From assembly GCF_054482595.1 (NCBI RefSeq), contig NZ_CM137008.1: a DNA stretch of 64,000 nt; one strand, written 5' to 3'. The notes under the pieces were generated by a model. The model ran no database searches and had not been told where the DNA came from. It saw nothing but the letters and a program-made list of their open reading frames with translations. Of this stretch, positions 46,884 through 61,253 are shown piece after piece (positions within the stretch are counted from its first letter, which is position 1; every line of letters starts with the position of its first letter). The translations under genes were made by a program, and so were the position numbers.

Positions 46884-47339
46884 GAGTTCCCCGCGCCAGC
46901 GGGGATAAACCGGCCTGGCGATTTCTCGTCAGGCCTTGCGGTGTGAGTTCCCCGCGCCAGCGGGGATAAACCGTCAGTAAAGCGGCGCCCACTGATATCG
47001 GATTAGAGTTCCCCGCGCCAGCGGGGATAAACCGAGGGGCAGGGAGTGACGCTGGAGCAGGCGATCGAGTTCCCCGCGCCAGCGGGGATAAACCGGGAAA
47101 TTAGGCAAATGTGAACACGGCGGCCCCGAGTTCCCCGCGCCAGCGGGGATAAACCGCCAGTATTTTGTCGTGGATTGCGGGATCACCAGAGTTCCCCGCG
47201 CCAGCGGGGATAAACCGTTGAGTTTGTTCGTAACAACGCGGGTCATCTGGAGTTCCCCGCGGCAGCGGGGATAAACCGGGTACAAAAGAGGCCCCATTCT
47301 GGCAGGGCTCAAGTTCCCCGCGCCAGTGGGGATAAACCA
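46884..47339 (+). CRISPR. Type I-E CRISPR array: 8 repeats of 29 nt, 7 spacers of 32 nt, no adjacent cas genes
   Basis: Repeat GAGTTCCCCGCGCCAGCGGGGATAAACCG at 46884, 46945, 47006, 47067, 47128, 47189, 47250 (one C-to-G variant) and degenerate terminal repeat aagttccccgcgccagtggggataaacca at 47311; exact 61-nt period. Confidence 0.95.
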
Positions 47340-47809
47340 CCATATAACCCGTTATCTCTTTCTCAAGTTTTTATATTAGCAGTACTCGTAATAAGCAACA
47401 TATCCACGTAACACCTCATGTTCAAAATAGTTCCCCATGCCAGATAAGTTCACAATTATCGATACAAAAAATCAAATTTAATCAAAGTGTTATTTGTATA
47501 ATCCTTAAACCGTTAAGAAATTTTAATGTATTATTTTTTTTAATATTAATTAATGCCTGTTAATTTTTTCTTTAGAATAACAGTGTGTTTTTTAAGCTTG
47601 TTATTCATTGATTAAGTAATAAATCTGGAAATTTGTCTTTGTTTTGAGGCTAATGAGTGGTTTTACATAACCGCCTCTATACGCTGTTGATGAATGGTTC
47701 TTATGAATAAAGATATCCAGTTCATACTTTAAGTGTAAATTGATAAAGTGCGATTCGTATTGTCTTTTATTCTAAAGACATCGAGTGTAGTTAATATTCC
47801 TTGTAAAAA

Positions 47810-47932
47810 CAGGGATAAACCGAACTAGTTAAAGTTTTTATTATGTTCCCTGCATCAGCGGGGATAAACCGGACTTGTTATCATTTTTTAAGTTGTCGAA
47901 CTTATGTTCCCCGCGTCAGCGGGGATAACCAT
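47810..47932 (+). CRISPR. Degenerate remnant CRISPR array (partial repeat, 2 degenerate repeats, one 32-nt spacer)
   Basis: cagggataaaccg (47810..47822), atgttccctgcatcagcggggataaaccg (47843..47871), 32-nt spacer, atgttccccgcgtcagcggggataaccat (47904..47932); a further repeat fragment agttccccatgccag lies near 47429. Confidence 0.75.
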
Positions 47933-47977
47933 TCAGGTATGTTCAGGCCGGGCTGTTTCCCGCCCGGCCTTCCTCAC

Positions 47978-49456
47978 TTACGCATTCGACCAGCTCTGGA
48001 TCGAATCCGCATTTCCCAATTCCCCATGCATCACTTCATACGATTTTTTCAGAATCACATCAGTATGTTTGGTTAGGTCTTTGAAAATGCCTTTATTCAT
48101 CGCGTCGTAGCGTTTGGCATTGCTCTCAATCGGTATAAAGATATCTTTCACGCGAACCATTTTATCGACAGCCGTTGCGTAATCCGGGTATAGCCCCAGA
48201 CCTACCGCTGTATTAATCGCTGCCCCCAGGCTTGCACAACCGTTAATGGCGTTACGTCGTGCCGGAAGGTTGAACACGTCGGCAAAAATCTGCATAAACA
48301 GATCGCTGTTCGAACCGCCGCCAGTAATGATTACATGCTTCGCAAAGTGATTCATTTCATTACACATATTGTCGTAATTGTTCTTCAGCGTCAGCGCCAC
48401 GCTTTCCAGTATCGAACGATATATCCATGCGTAATCCATGCTGGAATCAAAGCCGATCATAATCCCGCGTTTGTACGGTTCCCACGGATTGGTCAGCCAG
48501 TCCAGCACCGTCATCAGCCCATTACAGCCAGGTGGCACACTAGAGGCTTTCTTGTTGAGTAAATCTTCCGGTGAAAGATCCTGCGCCCTGGCATCCTGAA
48601 TTAACGACTCGCCTAACATGTCGCGCAGCCAGCTCACCGTCCACATGCCTTTGCGAATACCGTAACCTTCATACAGCAATGTTTGCGGAATAGAAGACAT
48701 AATCGGCCAGTACGCCACCGGATCTTTCGGCAAGGCTTTGCCGTTCATCATCAATGCGATGTAAGTGCCAAGAGAAATTACCGCAGTTTCATCATCCAGT
48801 AATCCGGCCCCCAGAGCTTCTACCGGTTTATCACTGGTGGTACAAACAACCGGCAGTCCTGCCGGGAAATGTGTCGCCAGTGCGGCTTGTGGTGTGATCT
48901 GTCCAAGGACGGTGCCAGGCATTTGCACATCAAACAGCATATGACGGGGGATATTAAACTTATCCATTACCGCAGCATCTTCACTCCATGCCCAGGTCTT
49001 ATAATCCACCGGCCACTGACCAAAATAGTTGGCGATATTGTCTTTAAACTCGCCGGTTAAGCGATGCGTCAGATAACCCGAAAAAGAGGTGACATAGGCC
49101 ACGTCAGGATTAGTGTGTTCGTAGGGACGCGTTACGCGTGCATCCTGCCAGCTAATCAATGGCGCAGCTGGCGTGCCATCGGCTTTCAATAACGCACGGC
49201 AGCAACGGATGGATCCCAGACCAATACCGACAATATCTTCTTTATTCCCGGCAAACTGACTCATCAAATCGTGACCGGCAAAACATAATGATGCCCATAA
49301 ATCGTCGTCAGGATGTTCTGCGGTATCGGCATCTGGCGTGTGCATCGGCTGCAATAAACCTTTGCCTTCGCAAACCACGTTACCTTCCAGATCGTACATC
49401 ACCACTTTTGTGCTCTGACTTCCGCCATCAATCCCTATGATGTATTTCTTCGACAT
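47978..49456 (-). CDS. ygcE: FGGY-family carbohydrate kinase
   Basis: 492-aa ORF MSKKYIIGIDGGSQSTKVVMYD; FGGY N- and C-terminal domains. Confidence 0.85.
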   Translation of the reverse strand: MSKKYIIGIDGGSQSTKVVMYDLEGNVVCEGKGLLQPMHTPDADTAEHPDDDLWASLCFAGHDLMSQFAGNKEDIVGIGLGSIRCCRALLKADGTPAAPLISWQDARVTRPYEHTNPDVAYVTSFSGYLTHRLTGEFKDNIANYFGQWPVDYKTWAWSEDAAVMDKFNIPRHMLFDVQMPGTVLGQITPQAALATHFPAGLPVVCTTSDKPVEALGAGLLDDETAVISLGTYIALMMNGKALPKDPVAYWPIMSSIPQTLLYEGYGIRKGMWTVSWLRDMLGESLIQDARAQDLSPEDLLNKKASSVPPGCNGLMTVLDWLTNPWEPYKRGIMIGFDSSMDYAWIYRSILESVALTLKNNYDNMCNEMNHFAKHVIITGGGSNSDLFMQIFADVFNLPARRNAINGCASLGAAINTAVGLGLYPDYATAVDKMVRVKDIFIPIESNAKRYDAMNKGIFKDLTKHTDVILKKSYEVMHGELGNADSIQSWSNA

Positions 49457-49482
49457 GATTTTTCTCCTGTAATTTTCCTGGC

Positions 49483-50760
49483 TTACTTGCTGCTAGCCAT
49501 TGCGGGGGCGCTATCAGCAGTACGAATTTTTTGGAACAGCAAAAAGGTAAAGACAATCACCATGGCAAGCGCCGCCATGCCCATCAGCCACATATTGCGG
49601 TAGGCTTCTGCTGCGGGCAGGGTGTCTTGCCAGTGGCCGATAATTGGGTAAACGAAGACATCCGGCAGGAATCCAATCACCGAGCAAATACCTACCGTGG
49701 TGCCCATAATGTAAGACGGTGTTCTCGCTTCGCCAGGGCAGGCCCAGTACAGCCCGCGTGAGGCGTAACAGGTGAATCCCAGCAGTAAAATCAGGCCAAT
49801 CCCCATCGCGACCGATTGCGGGTTAGAGTTCGTGACGAGCAGGGCAGTTAACGCCAGCAGGCCGAGTACGGAAAGGATTTGGATCACGCGGGTAGGGGAT
49901 TTCACTTTGCTGTAGGTGGTGATTATGCCGCCAAGTGGGCCGCACAGCGCGCGGAAGATTTTGTTGATCACAATCCCCATGTAGCTCGCCGCCACCAGCG
50001 ACATGCCGTACATTTCGGTCAGATAGTTGGTGGAGTAACTCAGAATGGCGTAGATGGTGAAGACACCAAAAATCACCATGCTGCAATACCAGGTGGTACT
50101 GATACGCAAAACGGCCAGGATATCGCTAAGCTGGAATGACTGTTTTTCTTCGTTATTGGCACTGCGCAGGTTGTTGTTATCGCTAACAAAAAACCAGCAC
50201 AGAAGCCCCAACAAGATGTAAACCACACTGTAGATGATAATGACCGTTTTCAGGCTGGCGCTGTCATCCGGTGCAAAGCGAGAAAAGACCCACATGGTAA
50301 ACACCGCCAGCGACATTACACCGACGCCGCGCAGCCCTTCCATCCAGCCCATAATTTTCCCTTGCTCGCTATGATCGCCAAGCAACGATGCGGCTTTAAT
50401 CGACACCGACCACAGCATTAAAATCGTCGTTATCGCAAAGGCGACCTGAATACAGAGCATTACCCACAGCGGTGGATACGTTGCCATTAACAGACCCAGT
50501 AATCCGGTAATGATCATCGCGGAAGTAATCATTTTGCGATGTGAGAATTTATCAGCAATAACGCCGCTGGGGGCATAAAGAATAATAGCTGCAATACCAA
50601 AGGTACTCATTATTAAACCTATCTCGGTATTGCTGAATCCCATAAATTTCGCCATGGGAATTTGATAAATATAACGTAAATAAGCCAGGTCGAAACTAAC
50701 GCCGCCGCTAAAACTAATTATCGCGAGGGTTATCCAACGGCGATATGAGTTGTGTTGCAT
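49483..50760 (-). CDS. yqcE: MFS transporter
   Basis: 425-aa polytopic ORF upstream of and co-oriented with ygcE. Confidence 0.85.
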   Translation of the reverse strand: MQHNSYRRWITLAIISFSGGVSFDLAYLRYIYQIPMAKFMGFSNTEIGLIMSTFGIAAIILYAPSGVIADKFSHRKMITSAMIITGLLGLLMATYPPLWVMLCIQVAFAITTILMLWSVSIKAASLLGDHSEQGKIMGWMEGLRGVGVMSLAVFTMWVFSRFAPDDSASLKTVIIIYSVVYILLGLLCWFFVSDNNNLRSANNEEKQSFQLSDILAVLRISTTWYCSMVIFGVFTIYAILSYSTNYLTEMYGMSLVAASYMGIVINKIFRALCGPLGGIITTYSKVKSPTRVIQILSVLGLLALTALLVTNSNPQSVAMGIGLILLLGFTCYASRGLYWACPGEARTPSYIMGTTVGICSVIGFLPDVFVYPIIGHWQDTLPAAEAYRNMWLMGMAALAMVIVFTFLLFQKIRTADSAPAMASSK

Positions 50761-50882
50761 ATCGTATTCCCATTTGTAATAGACAAAAAAAAGAGAAAAG
50801 TAAGCCGCCCTTTCAGGTGGATTACTTTTCTCAGGTCTCTAGTAATTGAAATAATAAATAACATGGAAAGCAGAGGTGTTGT

Positions 50883-50954
50883 GTGAGAGTAATCACGCTT
50901 CTGCTTTTTAAAACTATTTGATAATGCGAATATCACACTGTGATTACGATCACA
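50883..50954. promoter_or_regulatory. Two CRP-like boxes in the yqcE/ygcW divergent region
   Basis: tgtgaGAGTAAtcacg (50883..50898) and perfect TGTGAttacgaTCACA (50939..50954). Confidence 0.55.
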
Positions 50955-51008
50955 TTAGCAGTTATGCCCTTATGCTAAAAATTATCTCCAGTTACCAGAG
51001 ATAATGAG

Positions 51009-51054
51009 AAAGGTAACTTCCCTCTCGCGGGGGAAGTTACCTTTCTTTTTTTTT
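51009..51054 (+). terminator. Strong intrinsic-terminator-like hairpin in the ygcW leader (possible attenuator)
   Basis: aaaggtaacttccc-tctcgcgg-gggaagttaccttt (14-bp perfect stem) followed by cTTTTTTTTT; ends 25 nt before the ygcW start codon. Confidence 0.6.
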
Positions 51055-51078
51055 GCCTTACGGAAATTGGAGCTAACT

Positions 51079-51864
51079 ATGTCAATCGAATCTCTCAATG
51101 CGTTCTCAATGGATTTTTTCTCCCTGAAAGGTAAAACCGCAATTGTTACCGGCGGGAATAGCGGTTTAGGCCAGGCATTTGCCATGGCGTTGGCCAAAGC
51201 AGGCGCAAATGTCTTTATTCCTAGCTTCGTCAAAGATAACGGCGAAACAAAGGAAATGATTGAAAAACAGGGTGTTGAAGTTGATTTTATGCAGGTGGAT
51301 ATCACCGCAGAAGGCGCGCCGCAGAAGATTATCGCTGCTTGCTGTGAGCGTTTCGGAACAGTTGATATTCTGGTTAACAATGCCGGTATTTGTAAGCTGA
51401 ATAAGGTGCTGGACTTTGGTCGAGCCGACTGGGACCCGATGATTGATGTGAACCTGACCGCCGCATTCGAGTTAAGCTACGAAGCGGCAAAAATTATGAT
51501 CCCGCAGAAAAGCGGTAAAATTATTAATATCTGTTCATTGTTCTCTTACTTAGGTGGACAATGGTCACCTGCATATTCTGCCACTAAACATGCTCTTGCC
51601 GGATTCACCAAAGCTTATTGTGATGAACTAGGTCAATATAATATTCAGGTAAATGGTATCGCCCCTGGCTATTATGCAACAGATATTACGCTGGCGACAC
51701 GCAGTAATCCAGAAACCAATCAGCGCGTTCTTGATCATATTCCGGCAAACCGTTGGGGCGATACTCAGGATTTAATGGGCGCAGCCGTGTTTCTCGCAAG
51801 TCAGGCATCGAATTATGTCAACGGGCATTTATTAGTGGTCGATGGCGGTTATTTAGTGCGCTAA
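51079..51864 (+). CDS. ygcW: Short-chain dehydrogenase/reductase (KduD/FabG-like)
   Basis: ORF 51004..51864; start chosen at MSIESLNAFSM (261 aa) after RBS ggag; Rossmann motif TGGNSGLGQA; YxxxK catalytic motif (YSATK). Confidence 0.85.
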   Translation: MSIESLNAFSMDFFSLKGKTAIVTGGNSGLGQAFAMALAKAGANVFIPSFVKDNGETKEMIEKQGVEVDFMQVDITAEGAPQKIIAACCERFGTVDILVNNAGICKLNKVLDFGRADWDPMIDVNLTAAFELSYEAAKIMIPQKSGKIINICSLFSYLGGQWSPAYSATKHALAGFTKAYCDELGQYNIQVNGIAPGYYATDITLATRSNPETNQRVLDHIPANRWGDTQDLMGAAVFLASQASNYVNGHLLVVDGGYLVR

Positions 51865-51933
51865 CCCATAACGGTGGTTTCTGTTTTCTCTTATTAATGA
51901 TTATTCCATTTTTATTATCAGGAAGGAATTACT

Positions 51934-53388
51934 ATGTCTTTATCTCGCGCAGCGATTGTCGACCAGCTAAAGGAAATTGTTGGTGCAGATCGCGTAATTA
52001 CCGATGAAACAGTATTAAAGAAGAACAGTATTGACCGTTTTCGTAAATTTCCGGATATTCATGGCATTTATACTTTGCCGATTCCGGCAGCGGTCGTAAA
52101 ACTCGGTTCCACAGAACAAGTCTCCCGTGTGCTGAATTTTATGAATGCGCACAAAATTAACGGTGTGCCGCGTACCGGTGCTTCCGCCACCGAAGGTGGG
52201 CTGGAAACTGTTGTAGAAAACTCGGTGGTGCTCGACGGCTCCGCCATGAATCAAATCATTAATATTGATATTGAGAATATGCAGGCGACGGCGCAATGTG
52301 GCGTTCCCCTGGAAGTGCTGGAAAACGCGTTGCGTGAAAAAGGTTACACCACGGGGCATTCTCCGCAGTCAAAGCCGCTGGCGCAGATGGGCGGCCTGGT
52401 AGCAACCCGCAGTATCGGGCAGTTCTCCACACTCTACGGCGCAATCGAAGATATGGTCGTTGGTCTGGAAGCAGTATTGGCTGATGGCACCGTCACACGC
52501 ATTAAAAACGTGCCACGCCGCGCGGCTGGCCCGGACATTCGTCACATCATCATCGGCAACGAAGGTGCATTGTGCTATATCACTGAAGTAACAGTGAAAA
52601 TCTTTAAATTCACCCCGAAAAACAACCTCTTCTACGGCTATATCCTGGAAGACATGAAAACCGGCTTCAACATCCTGCGTGAAATCATGGTGGAAGGGTA
52701 TCGTCCGTCGATCGCTCGTTTGTATGACGCTGAAGATGGCACCCAACACTTCACCCATTTTGCCGACGGAAAATGTGTGCTGATCTTTATGGCTGAAGGT
52801 AACCCTCGCATTGCGAAGGCGACGGGCGAAGGGATTGCGGAAATCGTTGCCCGCTACCCGCAGTGCCAGCGCGTGGACAGCAAACTGATCGAAACCTGGT
52901 TTAACAACCTGAACTGGGGACCGGATAAAGTGGCTGCCGAACGTGTGCAAATCCTCAAAACCGGCAACATGGGCTTTACCACTGAAGTGTCCGGCTGCTG
53001 GAGCTGCATCCACGAAATCTACGAAAGCGTTATTAACCGTATTCGTATCGAGTTCCCGCACGCCGACGACATCACTATGCTGGGTGGTCACTCCTCTCAT
53101 AGCTATCAGAACGGCACCAACATGTACTTCGTCTACGACTACAACGTTGTCAACTGTAAGCCGGAAGAGGAAATCGACAAGTACCACAATCCGCTCAACA
53201 AAATCATCTGCGAAGAAACCATTCGCCTCGGCGGTTCGATGGTGCACCACCACGGCATTGGTAAACATCGCGTTCACTGGAGCAAGCTGGAACACGGCAG
53301 CGCGTGGGCGTTGCTGGAAGGGCTGAAAAAGCAATTCGATCCTAACGGCATTATGAATACGGGTACTATCTATCCGATTGAAAAATAA
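51934..53388 (+). CDS. ygcU: FAD-linked oxidoreductase (FAD-binding PCMH type)
   Basis: 484-aa ORF MSLSRAAIVDQLKEIVGADRVITDE. Confidence 0.85.
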   Translation: MSLSRAAIVDQLKEIVGADRVITDETVLKKNSIDRFRKFPDIHGIYTLPIPAAVVKLGSTEQVSRVLNFMNAHKINGVPRTGASATEGGLETVVENSVVLDGSAMNQIINIDIENMQATAQCGVPLEVLENALREKGYTTGHSPQSKPLAQMGGLVATRSIGQFSTLYGAIEDMVVGLEAVLADGTVTRIKNVPRRAAGPDIRHIIIGNEGALCYITEVTVKIFKFTPKNNLFYGYILEDMKTGFNILREIMVEGYRPSIARLYDAEDGTQHFTHFADGKCVLIFMAEGNPRIAKATGEGIAEIVARYPQCQRVDSKLIETWFNNLNWGPDKVAAERVQILKTGNMGFTTEVSGCWSCIHEIYESVINRIRIEFPHADDITMLGGHSSHSYQNGTNMYFVYDYNVVNCKPEEEIDKYHNPLNKIICEETIRLGGSMVHHHGIGKHRVHWSKLEHGSAWALLEGLKKQFDPNGIMNTGTIYPIEK

Positions 53389-53481
53389 TGTGTCAGGCAG
53401 CGTTCCGCGATGATGGGGCGTTGCCTTTTCGGCTTCTCAGGCGAGAAGCCGTTCTTATTACCGGACAATGAAGGGGTAAAG

Positions 53482-54819
53482 ATGAACACTTCACCGGTGC
53501 GAATGGATGATTTACCGCTTAACCGTTTTCACTGTCGAATTGCTGCGCTCACTTTCGGCGCACACCTGACCGACGGTTATGTTCTCGGCGTCATTGGTTA
53601 CGCCATTATTCAACTTACGCCCGCCATGCAACTGACGCCGTTTATGGCGGGAATGATCGGCGGCTCGGCGCTCCTTGGTTTGTTTCTTGGCAGCCTGGTT
53701 CTTGGGTGGATCTCCGACCATATTGGTCGGCAAAAAATCTTCACCTTCAGCTTTTTGCTGATTACGCTCGCTTCGTTCCTGCAATTTTTTGCCACCACGC
53801 CAGAGCATCTTATTGGACTGCGCATTTTGATCGGCATTGGTCTGGGAGGCGATTACTCAGTAGGTCACACCTTGCTGGCTGAATTTTCCCCGCGCCGCCA
53901 TCGCGGTGTTTTGCTGGGCGCATTCAGCGTGGTGTGGACCGTAGGCTATGTGTTAGCAAGTATTGCCGGACATCACTTTATTAGCGAAAGCCCGGAGGCC
54001 TGGCGCTGGCTGCTGGCATCGGCAGCTATGCCCGCGTTGTTGATTACGTTATTACGCTGGGGAACGCCAGAATCGCCACGCTGGCTACTGCGCCAGGGGC
54101 GTTTTGCAGAAGCTCACGCTATCGTGCATCGCTATTTTGGTCCCCATGTTTTACTGGGCGATGAAGTGGCAACGGCGACCCATAAACACATCAAAACCTT
54201 GTTCTCTTCGCGCTACTGGCGGCGCACGGCGTTTAACAGCGTCTTCTTTGTCTGCCTCGTAATCCCATGGTTTGTGATTTATACCTGGCTGCCAACTATC
54301 GCCCAGACTATTGGTCTAGAAGATGCGCTGACTGCCAGCCTGATGCTTAATGCGTTGTTAATTGTGGGCGCGCTGCTGGGATTAGTTCTGACGCACCTGC
54401 TGGCACATCGCAAATTTTTGCTGGGAAGTTTTTTGCTGCTGGCGGCAACGCTGGTAGTAGTGGCCTGTTTGCCTTCCGGCAGTTCATTAACGCTGCTGCT
54501 TTTTGTTCTCTTCAGCACCACCATTTCGGCAGTCAGTAATCTGGTGGGCATTTTGCCTGCGGAAAGTTTTCCTACTGACATTCGCTCGCTGGGCGTCGGT
54601 TTTGCCACCGCCATGAGCCGGTTGGGCGCGGCGGTAAGTACTGGCCTGCTGCCGTGGGTGCTGGCGCAGTGGGGAATGCAAGTTACCTTATTGATCCTGG
54701 CGGCAGTGTTGTTGGTTGGTTTTGTTGTGACCTGGCTATGGGCACCAGAAACCAAAGCACTCCCGCTGGTGGCGGCGGGAAATGTAGGAGGTGCGAATGA
54801 ACATTCTGTTAGCGTTTAA
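53482..54819 (+). CDS. ygcS: MFS sugar transporter
   Basis: ORF 53410..54819; start chosen at MNTSPVRMDD (445 aa); polytopic. Confidence 0.8.
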   Translation: MNTSPVRMDDLPLNRFHCRIAALTFGAHLTDGYVLGVIGYAIIQLTPAMQLTPFMAGMIGGSALLGLFLGSLVLGWISDHIGRQKIFTFSFLLITLASFLQFFATTPEHLIGLRILIGIGLGGDYSVGHTLLAEFSPRRHRGVLLGAFSVVWTVGYVLASIAGHHFISESPEAWRWLLASAAMPALLITLLRWGTPESPRWLLRQGRFAEAHAIVHRYFGPHVLLGDEVATATHKHIKTLFSSRYWRRTAFNSVFFVCLVIPWFVIYTWLPTIAQTIGLEDALTASLMLNALLIVGALLGLVLTHLLAHRKFLLGSFLLLAATLVVVACLPSGSSLTLLLFVLFSTTISAVSNLVGILPAESFPTDIRSLGVGFATAMSRLGAAVSTGLLPWVLAQWGMQVTLLILAAVLLVGFVVTWLWAPETKALPLVAAGNVGGANEHSVSV

Positions 54820-55576
54820 AGCCGAACCGGATGCCGGAATGCTGGCGGAAAAAGAGTGGCAGGCGGCGGCTCAGGGTAATAGCGGACCGGATGTTTCGCT
54901 ACTGCGAAGTTTACTCGGTGCTGATGAACAGGCTGCCGCCGCGCTGCTGTTGGCGCAGAGAAAAAACGGTACGCCGATGTCTTTAACCGCGTTGAGCATG
55001 GGGGATGAACGGGCGTTACACTGGCTGCGCTATCTCATGGCTCTTGGGTTTGAGGAAGCTGTATTGCTGGAGACGGCGGCAGATCTGCGCTTTGCGTCGG
55101 AATTTGTCGCTCGCCATATTGCCGAATGGCAGCGTCAGAATCCGCTGGATCTGATAATTACCGGCTGCCAAAGCAGCGAAGGGCAGAATGGGCAAACGCC
55201 ATTTTTGCTGGCGGAAACGCTGGGCTGGCCCTGCTTCACCCAGGTGGAGCGTTTCACTCTCGACGCGCTGTTTATCACCCTCGAACAGCGTACTGAACAT
55301 GGGCTGCGCTGTTGCCGGGTTCGCTTGCCTGCGGTGATTGCCGTGCGCCAGTGCGGTGAAGTGGCCTTGCCAGTACCGGGAATGCGCCAGCGAATGGCTG
55401 CGGGGAAAGCGGAAATTATCCGTAAAACTGTTGCTGCCGAATTGCCAGCGATGCAGTGTCTGCAACTGGCAAGAGCAGAGCAACGACGCGGAGCGACGCT
55501 GATTGATGGGCAAACGGTAGCAGAAAAAGCGCAAAAGCTATGGCAGGACTATTTACGCCAAAGGATGCAGCCATGA
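54797..55576 (+). CDS. ygcR: Electron-transfer-flavoprotein beta-subunit-like protein
   Basis: ORF 54791..55576; start chosen at MNILLAFKAEPDAG (259 aa); overlaps ygcS 3' end. Confidence 0.8.
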   Translation: MNILLAFKAEPDAGMLAEKEWQAAAQGNSGPDVSLLRSLLGADEQAAAALLLAQRKNGTPMSLTALSMGDERALHWLRYLMALGFEEAVLLETAADLRFASEFVARHIAEWQRQNPLDLIITGCQSSEGQNGQTPFLLAETLGWPCFTQVERFTLDALFITLEQRTEHGLRCCRVRLPAVIAVRQCGEVALPVPGMRQRMAAGKAEIIRKTVAAELPAMQCLQLARAEQRRGATLIDGQTVAEKAQKLWQDYLRQRMQP

Positions 55577-56433
55577 ATATCGCAATTGTGACAATAAATC
55601 AGGAGAATGCCGCAATAGCAAGCTGGCTGGCGGCGCAGGATTTCAGCGGTTGTACCCTGGCGCACTGGCAGATTGAACCTCAGCCCGTAGTGGCGGAACA
55701 GGTGCTGGATGCGCTGGTGGAACAGTGGCAGCGAACGCCTGCGAACGTTGTTCTCTTTCCGCCGGGAACGTTTGGCGATGAACTGTCGACCCGGCTGGCC
55801 TGGCGTTTACATGGTGCAAGCATCTGCCAGGTGACTTCGTTAGAGATTCCAACCGTAAGCGTGCGCAAATCCCACTGGGGAAATGCGCTAACGGCGACGC
55901 TGCAAACAGAAAAACGCCCGCTATGCCTTTCCCTGGCGCGTCAGGCGGGAGCAGCGAAAAACGCCACGTTGCCCTCTGGAATGCAACAACTGAACATTGT
56001 CCCGGGTGCGCTTCCGGACTGGCTGGTTAGCATAGAGAACCTGAAAAATGTTACCCGCGACCCATTAGCTGAGGCCAGACGGGTGTTGGTGGTGGGGCAG
56101 GGCGGAGAGGCAGATAACCAGGAAATCGCTATGCTGGCAGAAAAGCTGGGAGCCGAAGTGGGCTACAGTCGGGCGCGAGTGATGAACGGTGGCGTTGATG
56201 CTGAAAAAGTGATTGGTATTTCCGGACATCTGCTGGCACCTGAGGTGTGTATTGTTGTTGGCGCTTCTGGCGCAGCAGCGTTAATGGCGGGCGTACGCAA
56301 TAGCAAGTTTGTGGTGGCGATTAATCATGACGCCAGCGCAGCGGTATTTTCACAGGCAGATGTTGGCGTGGTTGATGACTGGAAAGTGGTGCTGGAGGCA
56401 CTGGTGACAAACATTGACGCAGATTGCCAATAA
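55573..56433 (+). CDS. ygcQ: Electron-transfer-flavoprotein alpha-subunit-like protein
   Basis: ORF 55540..56433; start chosen at MNIAIVTINQ (286 aa); C-terminal FAD-binding region. Confidence 0.8.
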   Translation: MNIAIVTINQENAAIASWLAAQDFSGCTLAHWQIEPQPVVAEQVLDALVEQWQRTPANVVLFPPGTFGDELSTRLAWRLHGASICQVTSLEIPTVSVRKSHWGNALTATLQTEKRPLCLSLARQAGAAKNATLPSGMQQLNIVPGALPDWLVSIENLKNVTRDPLAEARRVLVVGQGGEADNQEIAMLAEKLGAEVGYSRARVMNGGVDAEKVIGISGHLLAPEVCIVVGASGAAALMAGVRNSKFVVAINHDASAAVFSQADVGVVDDWKVVLEALVTNIDADCQ

Positions 56434-56437
56434 CGTG

Positions 56438-56548
56438 TTGCCGGATGATCCTGCCTACGGTTCTGGACTGGGGACCTGTAGGCCTGATAAGACGCGTTAA
56501 GCGTCGCATCAGGCGCTGAATGTCGGATGTGGCGTGCGGCCTACAAAT
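56438..56548. repeat. REP/BIME cluster between convergent ygcQ and ygcP
   Basis: gccggatgatcctgcctacgg, tgtaggcctgataagacgcgttaagcgtcgcatcaggcgc, gtcggatgtggcgtgcggcctaca. Confidence 0.7.
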
Positions 56549-56580
56549 CAAACCAAATTCAATTGGTTACGATTATCCCG

Positions 56581-57156
56581 TCAAAGCAATTTTTTCGCTA
56601 ACGTCCAGACTCCGGTATTCGTGGTGGAAAGCGCCACGACACCCGCGTTAATCGCATTACGCGCATCTTCTTCATCGCATACCAGCCCGCCAGCAATCAG
56701 CGGTTGGCGGATTTTTTCCGTCACCCAGCCCAGCACTTTGGGCATGCAGCCTGGCAGGATCTCAATACAATCCGGATTCGATTGCGCAACTTGCTTATCA
56801 ATGTTGTGAAACGAAATCGAATCAACAATAAACAGGCGATGAATACAGAAAAAACCTTCCGCTCTTGCCGCTTTCAACATTGAGGCTTTGGTACTGATAA
56901 TGCCGTCCGCCTCGGTCACCAGTTTCAAAAACTGAATCACGACTTCTTTATTTGACGCGCCTTCCAGCAAATCAACATGAATAAAAGCATATTTCCCGGC
57001 GTTCTTAATCTTTTTAACGATATTACTGATGGTGCAGATATTGCCGTACAACACGGAAATAAACTGGCATTCAGAGTCGATTGCCAGTTGTAGGCTGGCA
57101 TTATCTTTAACGGCAGCAATCACCGGATTCTGGCGGAGCAGGTGTAAGAGGGGCAT
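56581..57156 (-). CDS. ygcP: GlpP-like (glycerol-3-phosphate-responsive antiterminator family) protein
   Basis: 191-aa ORF MPLLHLLRQNPVIAAVKDN; last gene of the ygcN-ygcO-ygcP minus-strand unit. Confidence 0.8.
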   Translation of the reverse strand: MPLLHLLRQNPVIAAVKDNASLQLAIDSECQFISVLYGNICTISNIVKKIKNAGKYAFIHVDLLEGASNKEVVIQFLKLVTEADGIISTKASMLKAARAEGFFCIHRLFIVDSISFHNIDKQVAQSNPDCIEILPGCMPKVLGWVTEKIRQPLIAGGLVCDEEDARNAINAGVVALSTTNTGVWTLAKKLL

Positions 57157-57172
57157 AAATTATCCTTATTAT

Positions 57173-57433
57173 TTATCCAAAACGGTAGGTGATGCCGAAT
57201 CCGGAAGGCGGATAGCGCCACTGTTGTAGTGTTGATTCGTCGCACAGCAAACGGCAGGTGCCACACTCCAGGCAACTGCGATAGTCAATACGTAAGTCAC
57301 CTTCCGGTGTGAGCGAAAAAAGACCTGCCGGACAGGCGTTAATCAACCGTTCTGCCGTCTGGCGCTCAACGGAGTCAGCCGGAACAATATGTGGCGCATC
57401 AGCAGCGCGCCAGAGATTACGGGCTACAGACAT
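57173..57433 (-). CDS. ygcO: Ferredoxin-like protein (FixX-like)
   Basis: ORF 57173..57469; start chosen at MSVARNLW (86 aa); Cys cluster CLECGTCRLLC. Confidence 0.75.
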   Translation of the reverse strand: MSVARNLWRAADAPHIVPADSVERQTAERLINACPAGLFSLTPEGDLRIDYRSCLECGTCRLLCDESTLQQWRYPPSGFGITYRFG

Positions 57434-58695
57434 CGCAGACTCCTGATAACGTCGCCCGCCAGATGCCACAGGCCGTGACGACGTAAATGACGCCAGAATA
57501 ACTGGCGCAGCGGTGGAACAGGTTTATCACCCTGATCCCATAAATCGCGGGAAATATCCTGCATTAACGCAGGCCACGCCCAATACCAGCCAGGGCGTTG
57601 CAAAAGCGCCGGAACATGCTGATAACGCTGTAGAACATCCCACAGCAGGCTGCGCTCGACGTTGTGATGATAAAGCGGAAACAGATTTTGCGGCTCGCAG
57701 TGCTGGCAGGCGCTTATCAGCGTTTGTGCCGCCGCCTGTGCGCCAGTCAGCGCCATATCCATGCCGCGCACGGAGATTCCGGTATTGACGCAACTGCGTA
57801 ACGCATCGCCCACCAGCAGCCAGCCGTTACCGGCGTATTGCACTGGCATACTGTGCAAGCCACCTTCTGGCACCAGATGCGCACCATACTCCAGTGATTC
57901 CGTGTTTTTGATAAGCGGGCGCACTGCCGGATACGTTTTAAAGCGAGCCAGCAGCTCGCTTGCCGGAACACGACTTTGCGTAAGGGAAGAGAGCGGGCAA
58001 ACAATCCCTAACGAGAGCGTTTGTTGATTAGTATAAAGAAATGCGCCGCCGGGAAAGTCATCACAGATTCCGCCGCTGAACAGCAACGCTGCGCCTTCGT
58101 TATTCTCCAGATGAAAACGTTCTTCAATAGCGGATGTTTCCAGCGACAGCACTTCTTTGATCCCCAACGCCATCGCTTCGCCAGCAGGACGAGTCACTAA
58201 TCCGTGACGTTCAGCCAGGACGCTGTTGGCACCTTCTGCCAGCACCACATAACGGGCGCGGAGAATATCGTCACCACAAATGACACCACACACTCTGCCG
58301 TTTTCTTCATACAGTGCATCCACCGTCGCTCCGGGGATACATTCGACACCTTCTTTTTCGGCTTCGGCAACCAGCCACGGATCGAACCGTGCACGTAATA
58401 CACTCCAGGATTCACCGCCGGGCTGTAAGCTGGAAAACGTCGTTGCGCCATCCGGCGTTAACAGGGAAAGGCTTTCGTGAGTGATGCGTCGTTCAAGAGG
58501 CGCGGTCAGATGAAACTGAGGGAGGAGTTCCGCGAGTGCATGGGTATATAACCGCCCGCCGGAAAGATTTTTGCTGCCGGGGATTTCAGCGCGTTCCAGT
58601 AACAAAACGGATAAACCCGCTCGCGCGCAGCGTAACGCGCAAGCGGTGCCTGCAATACCGGCACCAATAATAATAATGTCGCAGTCGTCTTCCAT
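57424..58695 (-). CDS. ygcN: FAD-dependent oxidoreductase (FixC / ETF-QO-like)
   Basis: ORF 57424..58725; start chosen at MEDDCDIIIIGAGIAG (423 aa); dinucleotide-binding motif. Confidence 0.8.
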   Translation of the reverse strand: MEDDCDIIIIGAGIAGTACALRCARAGLSVLLLERAEIPGSKNLSGGRLYTHALAELLPQFHLTAPLERRITHESLSLLTPDGATTFSSLQPGGESWSVLRARFDPWLVAEAEKEGVECIPGATVDALYEENGRVCGVICGDDILRARYVVLAEGANSVLAERHGLVTRPAGEAMALGIKEVLSLETSAIEERFHLENNEGAALLFSGGICDDFPGGAFLYTNQQTLSLGIVCPLSSLTQSRVPASELLARFKTYPAVRPLIKNTESLEYGAHLVPEGGLHSMPVQYAGNGWLLVGDALRSCVNTGISVRGMDMALTGAQAAAQTLISACQHCEPQNLFPLYHHNVERSLLWDVLQRYQHVPALLQRPGWYWAWPALMQDISRDLWDQGDKPVPPLRQLFWRHLRRHGLWHLAGDVIRSLRCL

Positions 58696-58772
58696 GTCAT
58701 GCCCCAGATATCCTGAACACAACACCCTAACATAGCGTTACTTAAGGGAAATTGACCGCCGACACACTCTTA

Positions 58773-59138
58773 TCATTCGCCGCGATAGATACAACCAGCG
58801 GTGCAGGTTTCTTTTACCATCACCGCACTTAACAGCGGCACAACGGGTTTAACCTGATCCCAAATCCATTTTGCTAAAACTTCGCTGGTCGGGTTTTCCA
58901 GACCTGGAATATCATTGAGATAATGGTGATCGAGGCGCTCATAAGTTGGCTTAAACGCCGCTTTCAGTTCAGCGAAATCGATAATCCAGCCCGTATGCGG
59001 ATCGACTTCCCCGGTAATTTCCAGTCGCACCATAAAGGAATGCCCGTGCAGGCGACCACATTTATGCCCTTCCGGGACGTGTGGTAAGCGGTGAGCGGCT
59101 TCGAAGGTGAAATCTTTAAATAACGTGGTGGACATCAT
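58773..59138 (-). CDS. queD: 6-carboxy-5,6,7,8-tetrahydropterin synthase
   Basis: ORF 58773..59222; start chosen at [19 protein letters not shown] (about 121 aa); His-motif HGHSF. Confidence 0.85.
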
Positions 59139-59453
59139 AATTTCTCTACAGGACGATAAAACCGCCGTAGAGTACCGGAAAGGCTGTTTTTTCGCATTAT
59201 CTAAAACGACTTTGTTGCGCAAAATCGCTGATTTATCTTAATGATTGGCTAAATTCATTTGTTTTTCATTAGGTTGGTTAATCTATTTTGTTGTTAAAGA
59301 CTATTGCTAAAACAGGTTAGTCGATTTGGTTATTAGTTATCGCTATCCCGTCTTTAATCCACACCGTTCACCCCGTTAACCTTACCTTCTCTTCTGTTTT
59401 ATGGGCGCTGACAGGGCGCAGAAACAGCTTTGCTTACTGGAACATAACGACGC

Positions 59454-61253
59454 ATGACGACACAGGTCCCACCTTCCGCGTTGCTTCCGTTGAACCCGGA
59501 GCAACTGGCACGCCTTCAGGCGGCCACGACCGATTTAACTCCCACCCAGCTTGCCTGGGTTTCTGGCTATTTCTGGGGCGTGCTCAATCAGCAGCCTGCT
59601 GCGCTTGCAGCGACGCCAGCGCCAGCCGCAGAAATGCCGGGTATAACTATTATCTCTGCTTCGCAAACCGGCAATGCGCGCCGGGTTGCTGAAGCATTAC
59701 GCGATGATTTATTAGCAGAAAAACTGAACGTTAAGCTGGTGAACGCGGGCGACTATAAATTCAAACAAATCGCCAGCGAAAAACTGCTCATCGTAGTGAC
59801 GTCAACGCAAGGGGAAGGGGAACCGCCGGAAGAAGCCGTCGCGCTGCATAAGTTCCTGTTCTCCAAAAAAGCGCCGAAGCTGGAAAATACCGCTTTTGCC
59901 GTGTTTAGCCTCGGCGATAGTTCTTATGAATTTTTCTGCCAGTCCGGGAAAGATTTCGACAGCAAGCTGGCGGAACTGGGCGGTGAACGCCTGCTCGACC
60001 GTGTCGACGCCGACGTTGAATACCAGGCTGCTGCCAGCGAGTGGCGCGCCCGCGTGGTTGATGCGCTTAAATCGCGTGCGCCTGTCGCGGCACCTTCGCA
60101 ATCCGTCGCTACTGGCGCGGTAAATGAAATCCACACCAGCCCGTACAGCAAAGACGCGCCGCTGGTGGCTAGCCTCTCTGTTAACCAGAAAATTACCGGG
60201 CGTAACTCTGAAAAAGACGTTCGCCATATCGAAATTGACTTAGGTGACTCGGGCCTGCGCTATCAGCCGGGCGACGCGCTGGGCGTGTGGTATCAGAACG
60301 ATCCGGCACTGGTGAAAGAACTTGTCGAACTGCTGTGGCTGAAAGGCGATGAAACTGTCACCGTTGACGGCAAAACGCTGACCCTGCGCGAAGCGCTACA
60401 GTGGCACTTCGAACTGACGGTTAACACCGCCAATATCGTTGAGAACTATGCCACGCTTACCCGCAGTGAAACGCTGCTGCCGCTGGTGGGCGATAAAGCG
60501 AAGTTGCAGCATTACGCCGCGACCACGCCGATTGTCGATATGGTGCGTTTCTCTCCGGCACAGCTTGATGCTGAAGCGCTGATTAACCTGCTGCGCCCGC
60601 TGACGCCGCGCCTCTATTCCATCGCCTCATCGCAGGCTGAAGTGGAAAGTGAAGTGCACGTCACCGTTGGTGTCGTTCGTTATGACATTGAAGGCCGCGC
60701 CCGTGCGGGTGGTGCCTCCAGCTTCCTCGCGGACCGCGTGGAAGAAGAGGGTGAAGTCCGCGTCTTTATCGAACATAACGATAACTTCCGCCTGCCCGCT
60801 AACCCGGAAACCCCGGTGATTATGATTGGCCCAGGCACCGGTATCGCGCCGTTCCGCGCCTTTATGCAGCAACGTGCTGCCGATGAAGCACCGGGTAAAA
60901 ACTGGCTGTTCTTTGGCAACCCGCATTTTACGGAAGATTTCCTCTACCAGGTGGAGTGGCAGCGCTACGTCAAAGAGGGTGTGCTGACGCGGATCGATCT
61001 CGCCTGGTCGCGCGATCAAAAAGAAAAAGTTTACGTACAAGACAAACTGCGCGAACAGGGCGCGGAGCTGTGGCGCTGGATCAATGACGGTGCCCACATT
61101 TATGTCTGCGGCGACGCTAATCGCATGGCGAAAGACGTTGAGCAGGCACTTCTGGAAGTGATTGCCGAATTTGGTGGCATGGACACCGAAGCGGCGGATG
61201 AATTTTTAAGTGAGCTGCGCGTAGAGCGCCGTTATCAGCGAGATGTCTACTAA
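59454..61253 (+). CDS. cysJ: Sulfite reductase [NADPH] flavoprotein alpha subunit
   Basis: 599-aa ORF with flavodoxin and FNR-like domains; stop overlaps cysI start. Confidence 0.93.

Follow-up and report, generated by a model that had tools for sequence, protein, structure and literature searches.

The gap of 319 bp between the divergent genes yqcE and ygcW of Escherichia coli holds two leader RNAs, one on each strand, and in both of them a conserved short helix, P1, shares bases with an intrinsic terminator that lies just ahead of the coding sequence. We studied these leaders in a window of 64,000 nt (the whole stretch of DNA analysed here, from contig NZ_CM137008.1 of RefSeq assembly GCF_054482595.1), which represents the ygc island of E. 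coli. With 501 nt around the gap as a query, matches were found in 5,067 of 5,426 complete E. coli genomes, and they sit between the annotated genes ygcW (coding for a short-chain dehydrogenase/reductase, SDR, oxidoreductase) and yqcE (coding for an MFS transporter). In the window ygcW starts with the ATG at 51079 on the plus strand and yqcE with the ATG at 50760 on the minus strand. We consider it likely that CRP-activated transcription of both operons is gated by antitermination through P1, dependent on YgcP, the GlpP-family protein of the island, with a phosphorylated product of the kinase YgcE as the probable inducer.

According to this model, the gap would consist of two divergent, mirror-image units, each made of a class II-type promoter activated by CRP with cyclic AMP and of a leader, and each transcript would begin, within its first few nucleotides, with an antitermination leader of the GlpP type. 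By default the leader of about 65 nt would fold into the terminator, so that transcription would stop 24 nt before the start codon and leave only a short RNA. The first 30 nt could instead form P1, a weak stem of 6-7 bp closed by a loop of the form AGAGA-N3-4-GAGAAAR. YgcP loaded with its inducer would bind P1 and stabilise it on the nascent RNA. As long as P1 is held, the base of the terminator would be blocked and RNA polymerase would read into ygcWUSRQ on one side and yqcE-ygcE on the other. By analogy with GlpP, which responds to glycerol-3-phosphate, this inducer is presumably a phosphorylated compound made by the YgcE kinase.

Terminators and helix P1 in the two leaders

The hairpin of the ygcW leader contains a perfect inverted repeat of 16 bp (51007-51022 and 51031-51046). 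It folds with 19 pairs at -31 kcal/mol (z = -7.7), none of 200 shuffled sequences was as stable, and a consensus terminator scan detected it as well. All the features named in an earlier sequence-only reading of this DNA are present, with small displacements of 1-2 nt, and its interpretation holds for the most part but is incomplete. That reading had described a perfect stem of 14 bp with a tract of nine T ending 25 nt before ygcW. The hairpin and the nine T (51046-51054) are there, the stem is longer than described, and the tract ends 24 nt, not 25, before the ATG. That reading was right that no plus-strand gene ends upstream of the hairpin, the neighbour being yqcE on the minus strand. What it overlooked is a second terminator hairpin with a U8 tract on the minus strand, 24 nt before the start of yqcE. 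Each of the two leaders has an intrinsic terminator in its 5' untranslated region (UTR), between promoter and first gene, as seen by folding and by Term-seq.

The two hairpins are related to each other. A repeat search found in the yqcE hairpin the stem base of the ygcW hairpin, GAGAAARGUAA. Exact copies of the 11-mer GAGAAARGTAA are confined, within the window, to this pair of hairpins; if one mismatch is tolerated, the number of matches rises to 6, where 1.6 would be expected. The leaders can be aligned from the P1 arm, about 18 nt ahead of the hairpin, through to the U tract (CCAGUUACCAGAGAUAAUGAGAAAGGUAAC... in the ygcW leader, UCAAUUACUAGAGAC-CUGAGAAAAGUAAU... in the yqcE leader). Folded at full length they reach z values of -6.7 (ygcW) and -4.0 (yqcE).

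Both hairpins terminate transcripts in vivo. The supplementary Term-seq tables of Adams et al. 2021 (eLife, PMC7815308), made from strain MG1655 grown in LB to an optical density of 0.4, list one 3' end 38 nt ahead of the ygcW start, at K-12 position 2900311(-) (40,640 reads on average), and another 36 nt ahead of the yqcE start, at 2900556(+) (1,557 reads). Their Rho scores are 0.50 and 0.61 and their intrinsic-terminator scores 15.8 and 11.4, respectively, where a score of at least 3 was taken to suggest intrinsic termination; both ends were classed as orphan, outside the Rho termination regions, and their entries in the column for characterised regulatory elements are empty (PMC7815308). 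We placed the ends in the window by means of the printed 61-nt sequences, which run from -50 to +10 around each end. Both fall within the 3' arm of their hairpin, at 51041 for ygcW (5 nt short of the U tract) and at 50796 for yqcE (3 nt short of it), and with the predicted starts both RNAs would be about 54 nt long at these ends. It is likely that the ends reflect 3' trimming of terminated leaders through the A/U-rich base of the stem. The abundant 3' end in the ygcW hairpin, with its non-Rho-dependent score, supports the proposal of the sequence-only reading that this is a leader terminator rather than the terminator of an operon end, and the short terminated transcript that it had suggested looking for by RNA sequencing is seen at both hairpins, in transcripts that started upstream of them.

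That reading had also suggested a search for an alternative antiterminator pairing, and this pairing exists. Both leaders open with the same conserved element, an arm of 6-7 nt (GUUACY or AUUACU), AGAGA, 3-4 nt and GAGAAAR, and in both the 5' arm pairs with GUAAC in the middle of the 5' arm of the terminator. Between the two leaders the helix shows a compensatory change, AUUACU/AGUAAU in yqcE against GUUACY/RGUAAC. When only the nascent RNA, up to the terminator loop, is folded, the minimum free energy structure is P1, at -6.7 (ygcW) and -1.4 (yqcE) kcal/mol; when the full leader is folded it is the terminator, at -31.2 and -20.7 kcal/mol. P1 alone cannot compete with the terminator, and the default state is therefore termination, in agreement with the Term-seq data.

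The conservation of P1 was assessed in an alignment derived from a covariance model (A4), as a MAFFT alignment (A3) had misplaced the 5' arm in five rows. A4 was not fitted to P1, because the P1 columns were modelled as unpaired in the model that built it. In its own register P1 is paired in 93.9% of the cells; shifting the partner by 1-3 columns lowers this to 15.7-55.6%. Compensatory changes occur at three of its seven pairs (GC:67/AU:25, AU:88/GC:5 and UA:71/CG:18). Its covariation score was reached by 0 of 500 shuffles, and an anchor-based count free of any alignment found P1 in register with 94.5% pairing. The terminator helix is paired in 91% of the cells, with 11 covarying pairs. Column 34, which is C or U, pairs in P1 in 92 of 93 sequences and is unpaired in the terminator in 56 of 93, and P1 pairing therefore appears to be under selection in its own right. 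Among 77 sequences the loop positions G19, A20, G21, A23 and G26 (numbered by the first row) are invariant, and G11, A12 and G13 nearly so.

Distribution, YgcP and the promoters

To follow the element beyond E. coli we used 80 genomic loci collected around YgcP/GlpP homologues, and began with a profile built from the two E. coli leaders. By this profile the element occurs twice, as a divergent pair, in every sufficiently complete locus from the Enterobacterales, among them Escherichia, Citrobacter, Klebsiella, Raoultella, Enterobacter, Yokenella, Pluralibacter, Mixta, Cedecea, Ewingella, Serratia, Rahnella, Budvicia, Limnobaculum, Pantoea, Erwinia and Enterobacillus. It is also present in Vibrio and Photobacterium, in Firmicutes (Geosporobacter, Halobacillus, Gracilibacillus, Salibacterium and Salsuginibacillus) and in Actinobacteria (Streptomyces, Arthrobacter and relatives). 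In consensus the element reads AGUUACU-AGAGA-N3-4-GAGAAAAGUAACUUCC, followed by the terminator and U8, and as a regular expression the motif was found in 57 of the 80 loci. A covariance model (R1) gave 101 matches at E <= 1e-4 in 57 glpP-anchored sources from four major groups. Applied to the window, it scores the two known copies at 75.3 and 72.3 bits and has no other significant match there; it also recovers a copy in Sporomusa (44 bits) and weak, positionally identical copies in Listeria. Together with the relaxed scan described below, the model extends the set to divergent copies from Sporomusa, Listeria and clostridial loci.

The element stands 20-100 nt from a start codon, directly upstream of ygc structural genes, and sometimes twice in a locus. 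In the Enterobacterales the genes that follow are the yqcE-type MFS transporter and the ygcW-type SDR; in the other groups they are combinations of an SDR, a YgcE-like FGGY kinase, a YgcU-like FAD oxidase, subunits of electron transfer flavoprotein (ETF) and a transporter. As a control anchored on the motif itself, metagenomes were scanned for GTTACYAGAG-N3-5-GAGAAARGTAAC with no protein reference. All 82 contigs with the motif carry ygc genes adjoining the match; 28 of them include a YgcP homologue, and many of the others stop short of where ygcP would be expected from its distance in E. coli. Complete E. coli genomes contain a median of 2 places that match the leader, and the listed matches coincide with no annotated feature.

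The only regulator-like gene of the ygc island is ygcP. Its product matches Pfam PF04309 (G3P_antiterm, 'glycerol-3-phosphate responsive antiterminator') over model positions 1-173 of 173 with E = 1.6e-62, and relatives of it have been solved as PDB 3KTS and 1VKF. In Bacillus subtilis, GlpP with glycerol-3-phosphate relieves a terminator in the leaders of glpD, glpFK and glpTQ (PMC9604022; also PMC10573289), and the glpD 5' UTR confers glycerol induction on foreign promoters, an effect lost in a glpP deletion (PMC9604022). We compared the glpD leader alone, by eye and by folding the published 5' UTR. This sequence, given as ...C-GGUC-CUGAGAUGAGGAGA-GACC-ACAGC... in Table S4 of PMC9604022, folds as nascent RNA into a GGUC/GACC helix, and its GACC lies inside the 5' arm of a terminator of -40 kcal/mol. 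The sequence-only reading had proposed YgcP as the protein that acts on the ygcW leader, and this link gains support from the strict co-occurrence of element and gene across phyla and from the layout of glpD.

When the loci were scanned under relaxed criteria (an arm, GAGA-N-GAG, the complementary arm and a run of T), 95 matches were obtained, as compared with 3 in shuffled loci. The scan reaches clostridial loci, where the element is followed by glpP-glpK (with GlpK scoring above its NCBIfam cut-off), by glycerol-3-phosphate oxidase/dehydrogenase-like genes and by a GlpQ-like gene. Divergent copies at glycerol loci keep the helix with wholly different arms (GCUAU/AUAGC, UUUGC/GCAAA and GGUC/GACC), and in one of the clostridial loci (L077) the loop UGAGAUGAGGAGA is identical to that of B. 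subtilis while the arms differ. A helix kept with changing sequence around constant loop purines is what would be expected of a hairpin recognised by a protein.

Several observations concern the locus as a unit. YgcU-like FAD oxidases are 63-70% identical among E. coli, Firmicutes and Actinobacteria (loci L047, L050, L057, L060 and L070), YgcP is 55-63% identical to its Firmicute homologues, and it looks as if the entire ygc cluster, leader RNA included, is horizontally mobile between phyla. In Listeria (L053, 8349-8405) and Vibrio (L049, 6871-6944) the leader precedes an operon that contains the glpP/ygcP homologue, which implies autoregulation. In E. coli, ygcP belongs to the separate ygcNOP operon, which lacks the leader motif; a third leader copy upstream of ygcNOP was looked for and discarded, the queD-ygcN gap holding neither hairpin nor motif.

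The two CRP-like boxes reported by the sequence-only reading are present, the first one nucleotide to the left of the position claimed (50882-50897 instead of 50883-50898) and the second as claimed. Box 2 is the only perfect TGTGA-N6-TCACA in the window, where 6 matches with at most one mismatch were found against 1.74 expected. Binding of CRP to its sequence, TGTGATTACGATCACA, is published, for ygcW/yqcE by chromatin immunoprecipitation sequencing in enterotoxigenic E. coli (PMC4287617), and in a preprint on in vitro Footprint-seq as a novel high-affinity site with an estimated Kd of about 1.7 nM (PMC12871828); box 1 is absent from the same passages of these papers. The yqcE/ygcW intergenic region also came out among the highest-ranked in an early phylogenetic search for CRP sites (PMC1794230). 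In other genera the counterpart of box 1, on the yqcE side, is CGTGATTATTCTCACA, at a conserved distance.

Both boxes had been assigned to ygcW, and this assignment does not stand, as each box lies ahead of a different predicted start. In every copy from the Enterobacterales and Vibrionaceae, if positions are counted from a point 2-3 nt ahead of the P1 arm, the centre of a CRP-like site (0-2 mismatches) lies 40-42 nt upstream and an extended -10 element, TGnTAnnnT, occupies -15 to -7; Firmicute copies have a canonical TTGACA-17-TATACT promoter in the matching position. From this conserved spacing of CRP site, -10 element and motif, each CRP box therefore appears to serve a promoter of its own, and P1 would lie at the extreme 5' end of each transcript. 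The 26-fold gap in Term-seq reads between the leaders would fit the perfect against the imperfect CRP site.

Weighing the explanations

Several points weigh against YgcP-dependent antitermination as the explanation. The role of YgcP is a proposal drawn from comparison, and the PDB relatives 3KTS and 1VKF are described only as the protein. The Term-seq ends lie within the 3' arm and not in the U tract, so that 3' trimming is needed to explain them. Both transcription starts are predictions from promoter geometry, and the Cappable-seq supplements and those of Adams et al. list no start at the expected coordinates. The 3' arm of P1 is shared with the terminator, and part of the covariation signal is thus common to both helices; the counts are moreover per sequence, not per evolutionary event, and many of the sequences are closely related. 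Finally, most loci were gathered by way of glpP, and E. coli with its relatives dominates the motif-anchored sample.

Other explanations act on RNA as well. The terminated transcripts might be CRP-dependent, trans-acting small RNAs of about 54-65 nt, with read-through either incidental or a constitutive leak. The abundance of the ygcW-leader 3' end in LB would suit such a role, as would the stable hairpin and U tail of both leader RNAs, and the title and abstract of PMC7815308 concern regulatory roles of RNAs derived from 5' UTRs. Yet the element is always found directly upstream of ygc structural genes in the four major groups, its conservation is focused on the overlap of P1 and terminator and not on a free seed region, and a role in trans is in any case compatible with a switch in cis; we regard small RNAs as the sole explanation as unlikely. 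A riboswitch that needs no protein, in which P1 and its purine loop would bind a metabolite and so block the terminator, with YgcP as an enzyme or unrelated regulator, has in its favour the alternative-structure layout typical of transcriptional riboswitches and a loop sequence strongly conserved across phyla. It seems quite improbable to us, given that the candidate sensor would be just about 29 nt with a single helix of 6-7 bp, that an Rfam match is absent, that the element co-occurs strictly with a GlpP-family gene, and that the similarly laid-out glpD leader of B. subtilis is uninduced in a glpP deletion (PMC9604022).

Control at the level of DNA, with the palindrome ATTATCTC-N9-GAGATAAT as the operator of a transcription factor and the hairpins as ordinary insulating terminators, is very improbable. 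The palindrome was noted by the sequence-only reading and is indeed perfect in the window, and it overlaps the predicted start of the ygcW operon, but it is not part of the conserved element. Its left arm spans DNA at the end of the -10 element and the start site and varies even within Escherichia (ATTATTCC or ATTATCCC) and in Citrobacter (TTTATTCC), its right arm is accounted for as the conserved AGAGAUAAUGAG of the P1 loop, and the yqcE leader has no equivalent. The palindrome was accordingly rejected, for want of conservation, both as an RNA hairpin and as a DNA operator, and is probably incidental; the island encodes no DNA-binding regulator, and there is no plus-strand gene upstream in need of an insulating terminator. 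It is hardly conceivable, lastly, that the leader acts through ribosome-mediated attenuation at a leader peptide, or that YgcW is extended at its N terminus from the ATG at 51004. This ATG is in frame with ygcW and no stop intervenes through 51078, which would allow an extension of 25 residues, but the frame would cross the terminator and the U tract, there is no Shine-Dalgarno sequence at a proper distance, and neither the yqcE leader nor many of the orthologous leaders have the ATG (the latter with CGAAGAG, CCTGAG or CCAGAG in its place). It is probably unused because it is not conserved, and a conserved leader peptide was likewise rejected, as no small open reading frame is conserved. YgcP-dependent antitermination through P1 thus remains the explanation that we favour.

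Around the two leaders, the K-12 annotation gives the gene order cysJIH, queD, ygcNOP, ygcQRSUW, yqcE-ygcE, queE, and the features of the window are collected in Table 1. No specific function could be drawn from NCBIfam for these E. coli ygc proteins, all matches being below the curated cut-offs; the nearest are KduD-like, GlcD-like, FixABCX-like and xylulokinase-like. The literature searched on ygcP, ygcW, the other ygc genes and the motif sequence yielded only lists of CRP sites and incidental mentions, and no publication on the function of YgcP. A scan with Rfam covariance models (cmscan, E <= 5, 47000-60000) returned no family for the leaders; the only match on the leader region is a chance-level one to rliE (24.4 bits against a gathering threshold of 90, E = 2), and the others in these 13 kb are a sub-threshold match to naRNA4, which is derived from repetitive extragenic palindromic (REP) elements, at 56481-56554 (32.8 bits against 59.5), and three at chance level. 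In the convergent ygcQ/ygcP gap, at 56478-56545, there is a REP-like palindromic element, GCCTGATAAGACGCG...CGCATCAGGC, to which the naRNA4 match belongs.

About 360 of the 5,426 complete E. coli genomes lack the region. At least one of them, NZ_CP080133.1 (1026933-1026976), retains only a 44-nt piece that corresponds to window positions 50870-50913, around CRP box 1, with no annotated feature, which suggests a deletion of the island. Between ygcE and queE, at 47128-47278, lies a short CRISPR-like array with 2.5 copies of a 61-nt unit that contains GAGTTCCCCGCGCCAGCGGGGATAAACCG, which looks like the E. coli type I-E repeat. The Term-seq table also holds orphan 3' ends in sequences with repeats of the CCCCGC-GGGGA type, a few kb away in K-12 (2904041, 2904075 and 2904326).

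Table 1. Features of the ygc island and of the yqcE/ygcW gap, in window coordinates
Feature	Position	Strand	Remarks
Operon ygcW-ygcU-ygcS-ygcR-ygcQ	51079..56433	+	SDR, FAD-linked oxidase, MFS transporter, ETF beta, ETF alpha; proposed controlled operon
Operon yqcE-ygcE	47978..50760	-	MFS transporter and FGGY-family kinase; proposed controlled operon
ygcP	56581..57156	-	GlpP-family; proposed trans-acting antiterminator
CRP site 1, TGTGAgagtaaTCACG	50882..50897		1 mismatch to TGTGA-N6-TCACA; centre 50889.5, about 41.5 nt upstream of predicted yqcE start (-)
CRP site 2, TGTGATTACGATCACA	50939..50954		Perfect TGTGA-N6-TCACA; centre 50946.5, about 41.5 nt upstream of predicted ygcW-operon start
Predicted extended -10, ygcW operon	50973..50981	+	TGcTAAAAA; predicted start about 50988-50991 (promoter geometry)
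Predicted extended -10, yqcE-ygcE	50855..50863	-	TGtTATTTA; predicted start about 50848-50849 (promoter geometry)
Palindrome	50981..51005		Arms 50981-50988 and 50998-51005, perfect 8/8; probably incidental
P1 5' arm, ygcW leader	50990..50996	+	AGUUACC; pairs with 51012-51018
P1 loop, ygcW leader	50997..51011	+	Purine blocks AGAGA (50997-51001) and GAGAAA (51006-51011); proposed YgcP recognition surface
P1 3' arm, ygcW leader	51012..51018	+	GGUAACU; within the terminator 5' arm
P1 5' arm, yqcE leader	50841..50847	-	A-AUUACU; pairs with AGUAAU at 50826-50821
Intrinsic terminator, ygcW leader	51006..51054	+	19-pair hairpin 51006-51047, U9 tract 51046-51054; Term-seq 3' end 51041
Intrinsic terminator, yqcE leader	50785..50832	-	Hairpin 50832..50793, U8 tract 50792-50785; Term-seq 3' end 50796

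Significance and relation to known systems

To our knowledge, antitermination of the GlpP type has been shown experimentally only in B. subtilis. The class of mechanism is thus known; what would be new is its presence in E. coli, in a paired form, on an orphan catabolic island and combined with CRP, and new as well is a precise RNA determinant that is supported by covariation and conserved across phyla. If our explanation is true, the ygc leaders are the first GlpP-type antitermination system in E. coli K-12, and a mechanism is assigned to the orphan regulator YgcP and to two operons. The comparative data offer an RNA determinant, P1 with its GAGA/GAG loop, for the PF04309 family, whose recognition of RNA awaits a structure, and two orphan Term-seq 3' ends find an explanation. 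A fusion of the leader to a reporter could serve as a simple screen for the inducer, and hence as a route to the substrate of the ygc pathway. Being compact and positively regulated, the element might also find use as a portable part for gene expression, as the glpD leader of B. subtilis already has.

One may go a step further and ask whether the ygc leaders belong to a widespread, uncurated class of RNA that forms the recognition element of the whole PF04309 antiterminator family, for which we suggest the name 'GlpP-RAT', with the ygc subclass and YgcP sensing a new phosphorylated metabolite made by YgcE. The chances of this seem to us evenly balanced. Such a class would be defined by a hairpin at the 5' terminus, a GAGA...GAG loop and an overlapping terminator, and would occur in Proteobacteria, Firmicutes and Actinobacteria. 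If it is real, it gives a direct handle on the substrate of an orphan catabolic island of E. coli. The abundant terminated leader may in addition be a CRP-dependent small RNA.

Three known systems invite comparison. As in divergent promoters of CRP class II, the CRP sites of the ygc gap lie about 41.5 nt upstream of the predicted starts, in place of a -35 element, the promoters have an extended -10, and binding of CRP has been demonstrated in published work. The ygc gap differs in having two sites 57 bp apart, each seemingly for one of the back-to-back promoters, and in that each promoter would then be gated by an RNA switch. The logic of the switch is that of the ribonucleic antiterminator (RAT) hairpins bound by BglG, SacY and LicT (E. 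coli bgl, B. subtilis sac and lic), where a weak hairpin that overlaps the 5' arm of a terminator is stabilised by a protein and read-through follows. The protein is unrelated, however; the island encodes no CAT-PRD protein, the ygc leaders have neither the RAT sequence nor an Rfam match to it, and nothing indicates control by the phosphotransferase system.

The closest likeness is to GlpP and glpD of B. subtilis. There, as in the ygc island, the regulator is a PF04309 protein, an intrinsic terminator stands in the 5' UTR immediately after the promoter, and a short upstream helix has its 3' arm within the 5' arm of the terminator. The loops are rich in GAGA/GAG in both (CUGAGAUGAGGAGA in glpD, AGAGAUAAUGAGAAAG in the ygcW leader, related as GAGAU..GAG.A), and termination is the default state, with positive control that for ygc is our proposal. 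The ygc system differs in its host, a proteobacterium, and in its targets, which are not glp genes but a cluster for SDR, FAD oxidase, FGGY kinase, ETF and transporters. Its consensus, GUUACU-AGAGA-N3-4-GAGAAAAGUAAC, is distinct and very conserved, and its leader is present in two divergent copies. Whereas B. subtilis uses sigma-A promoters with control by CcpA, the ygc promoters appear to be of the CRP class II type, and while the effector in B. subtilis is glycerol-3-phosphate, that of the ygc leaders probably is not.

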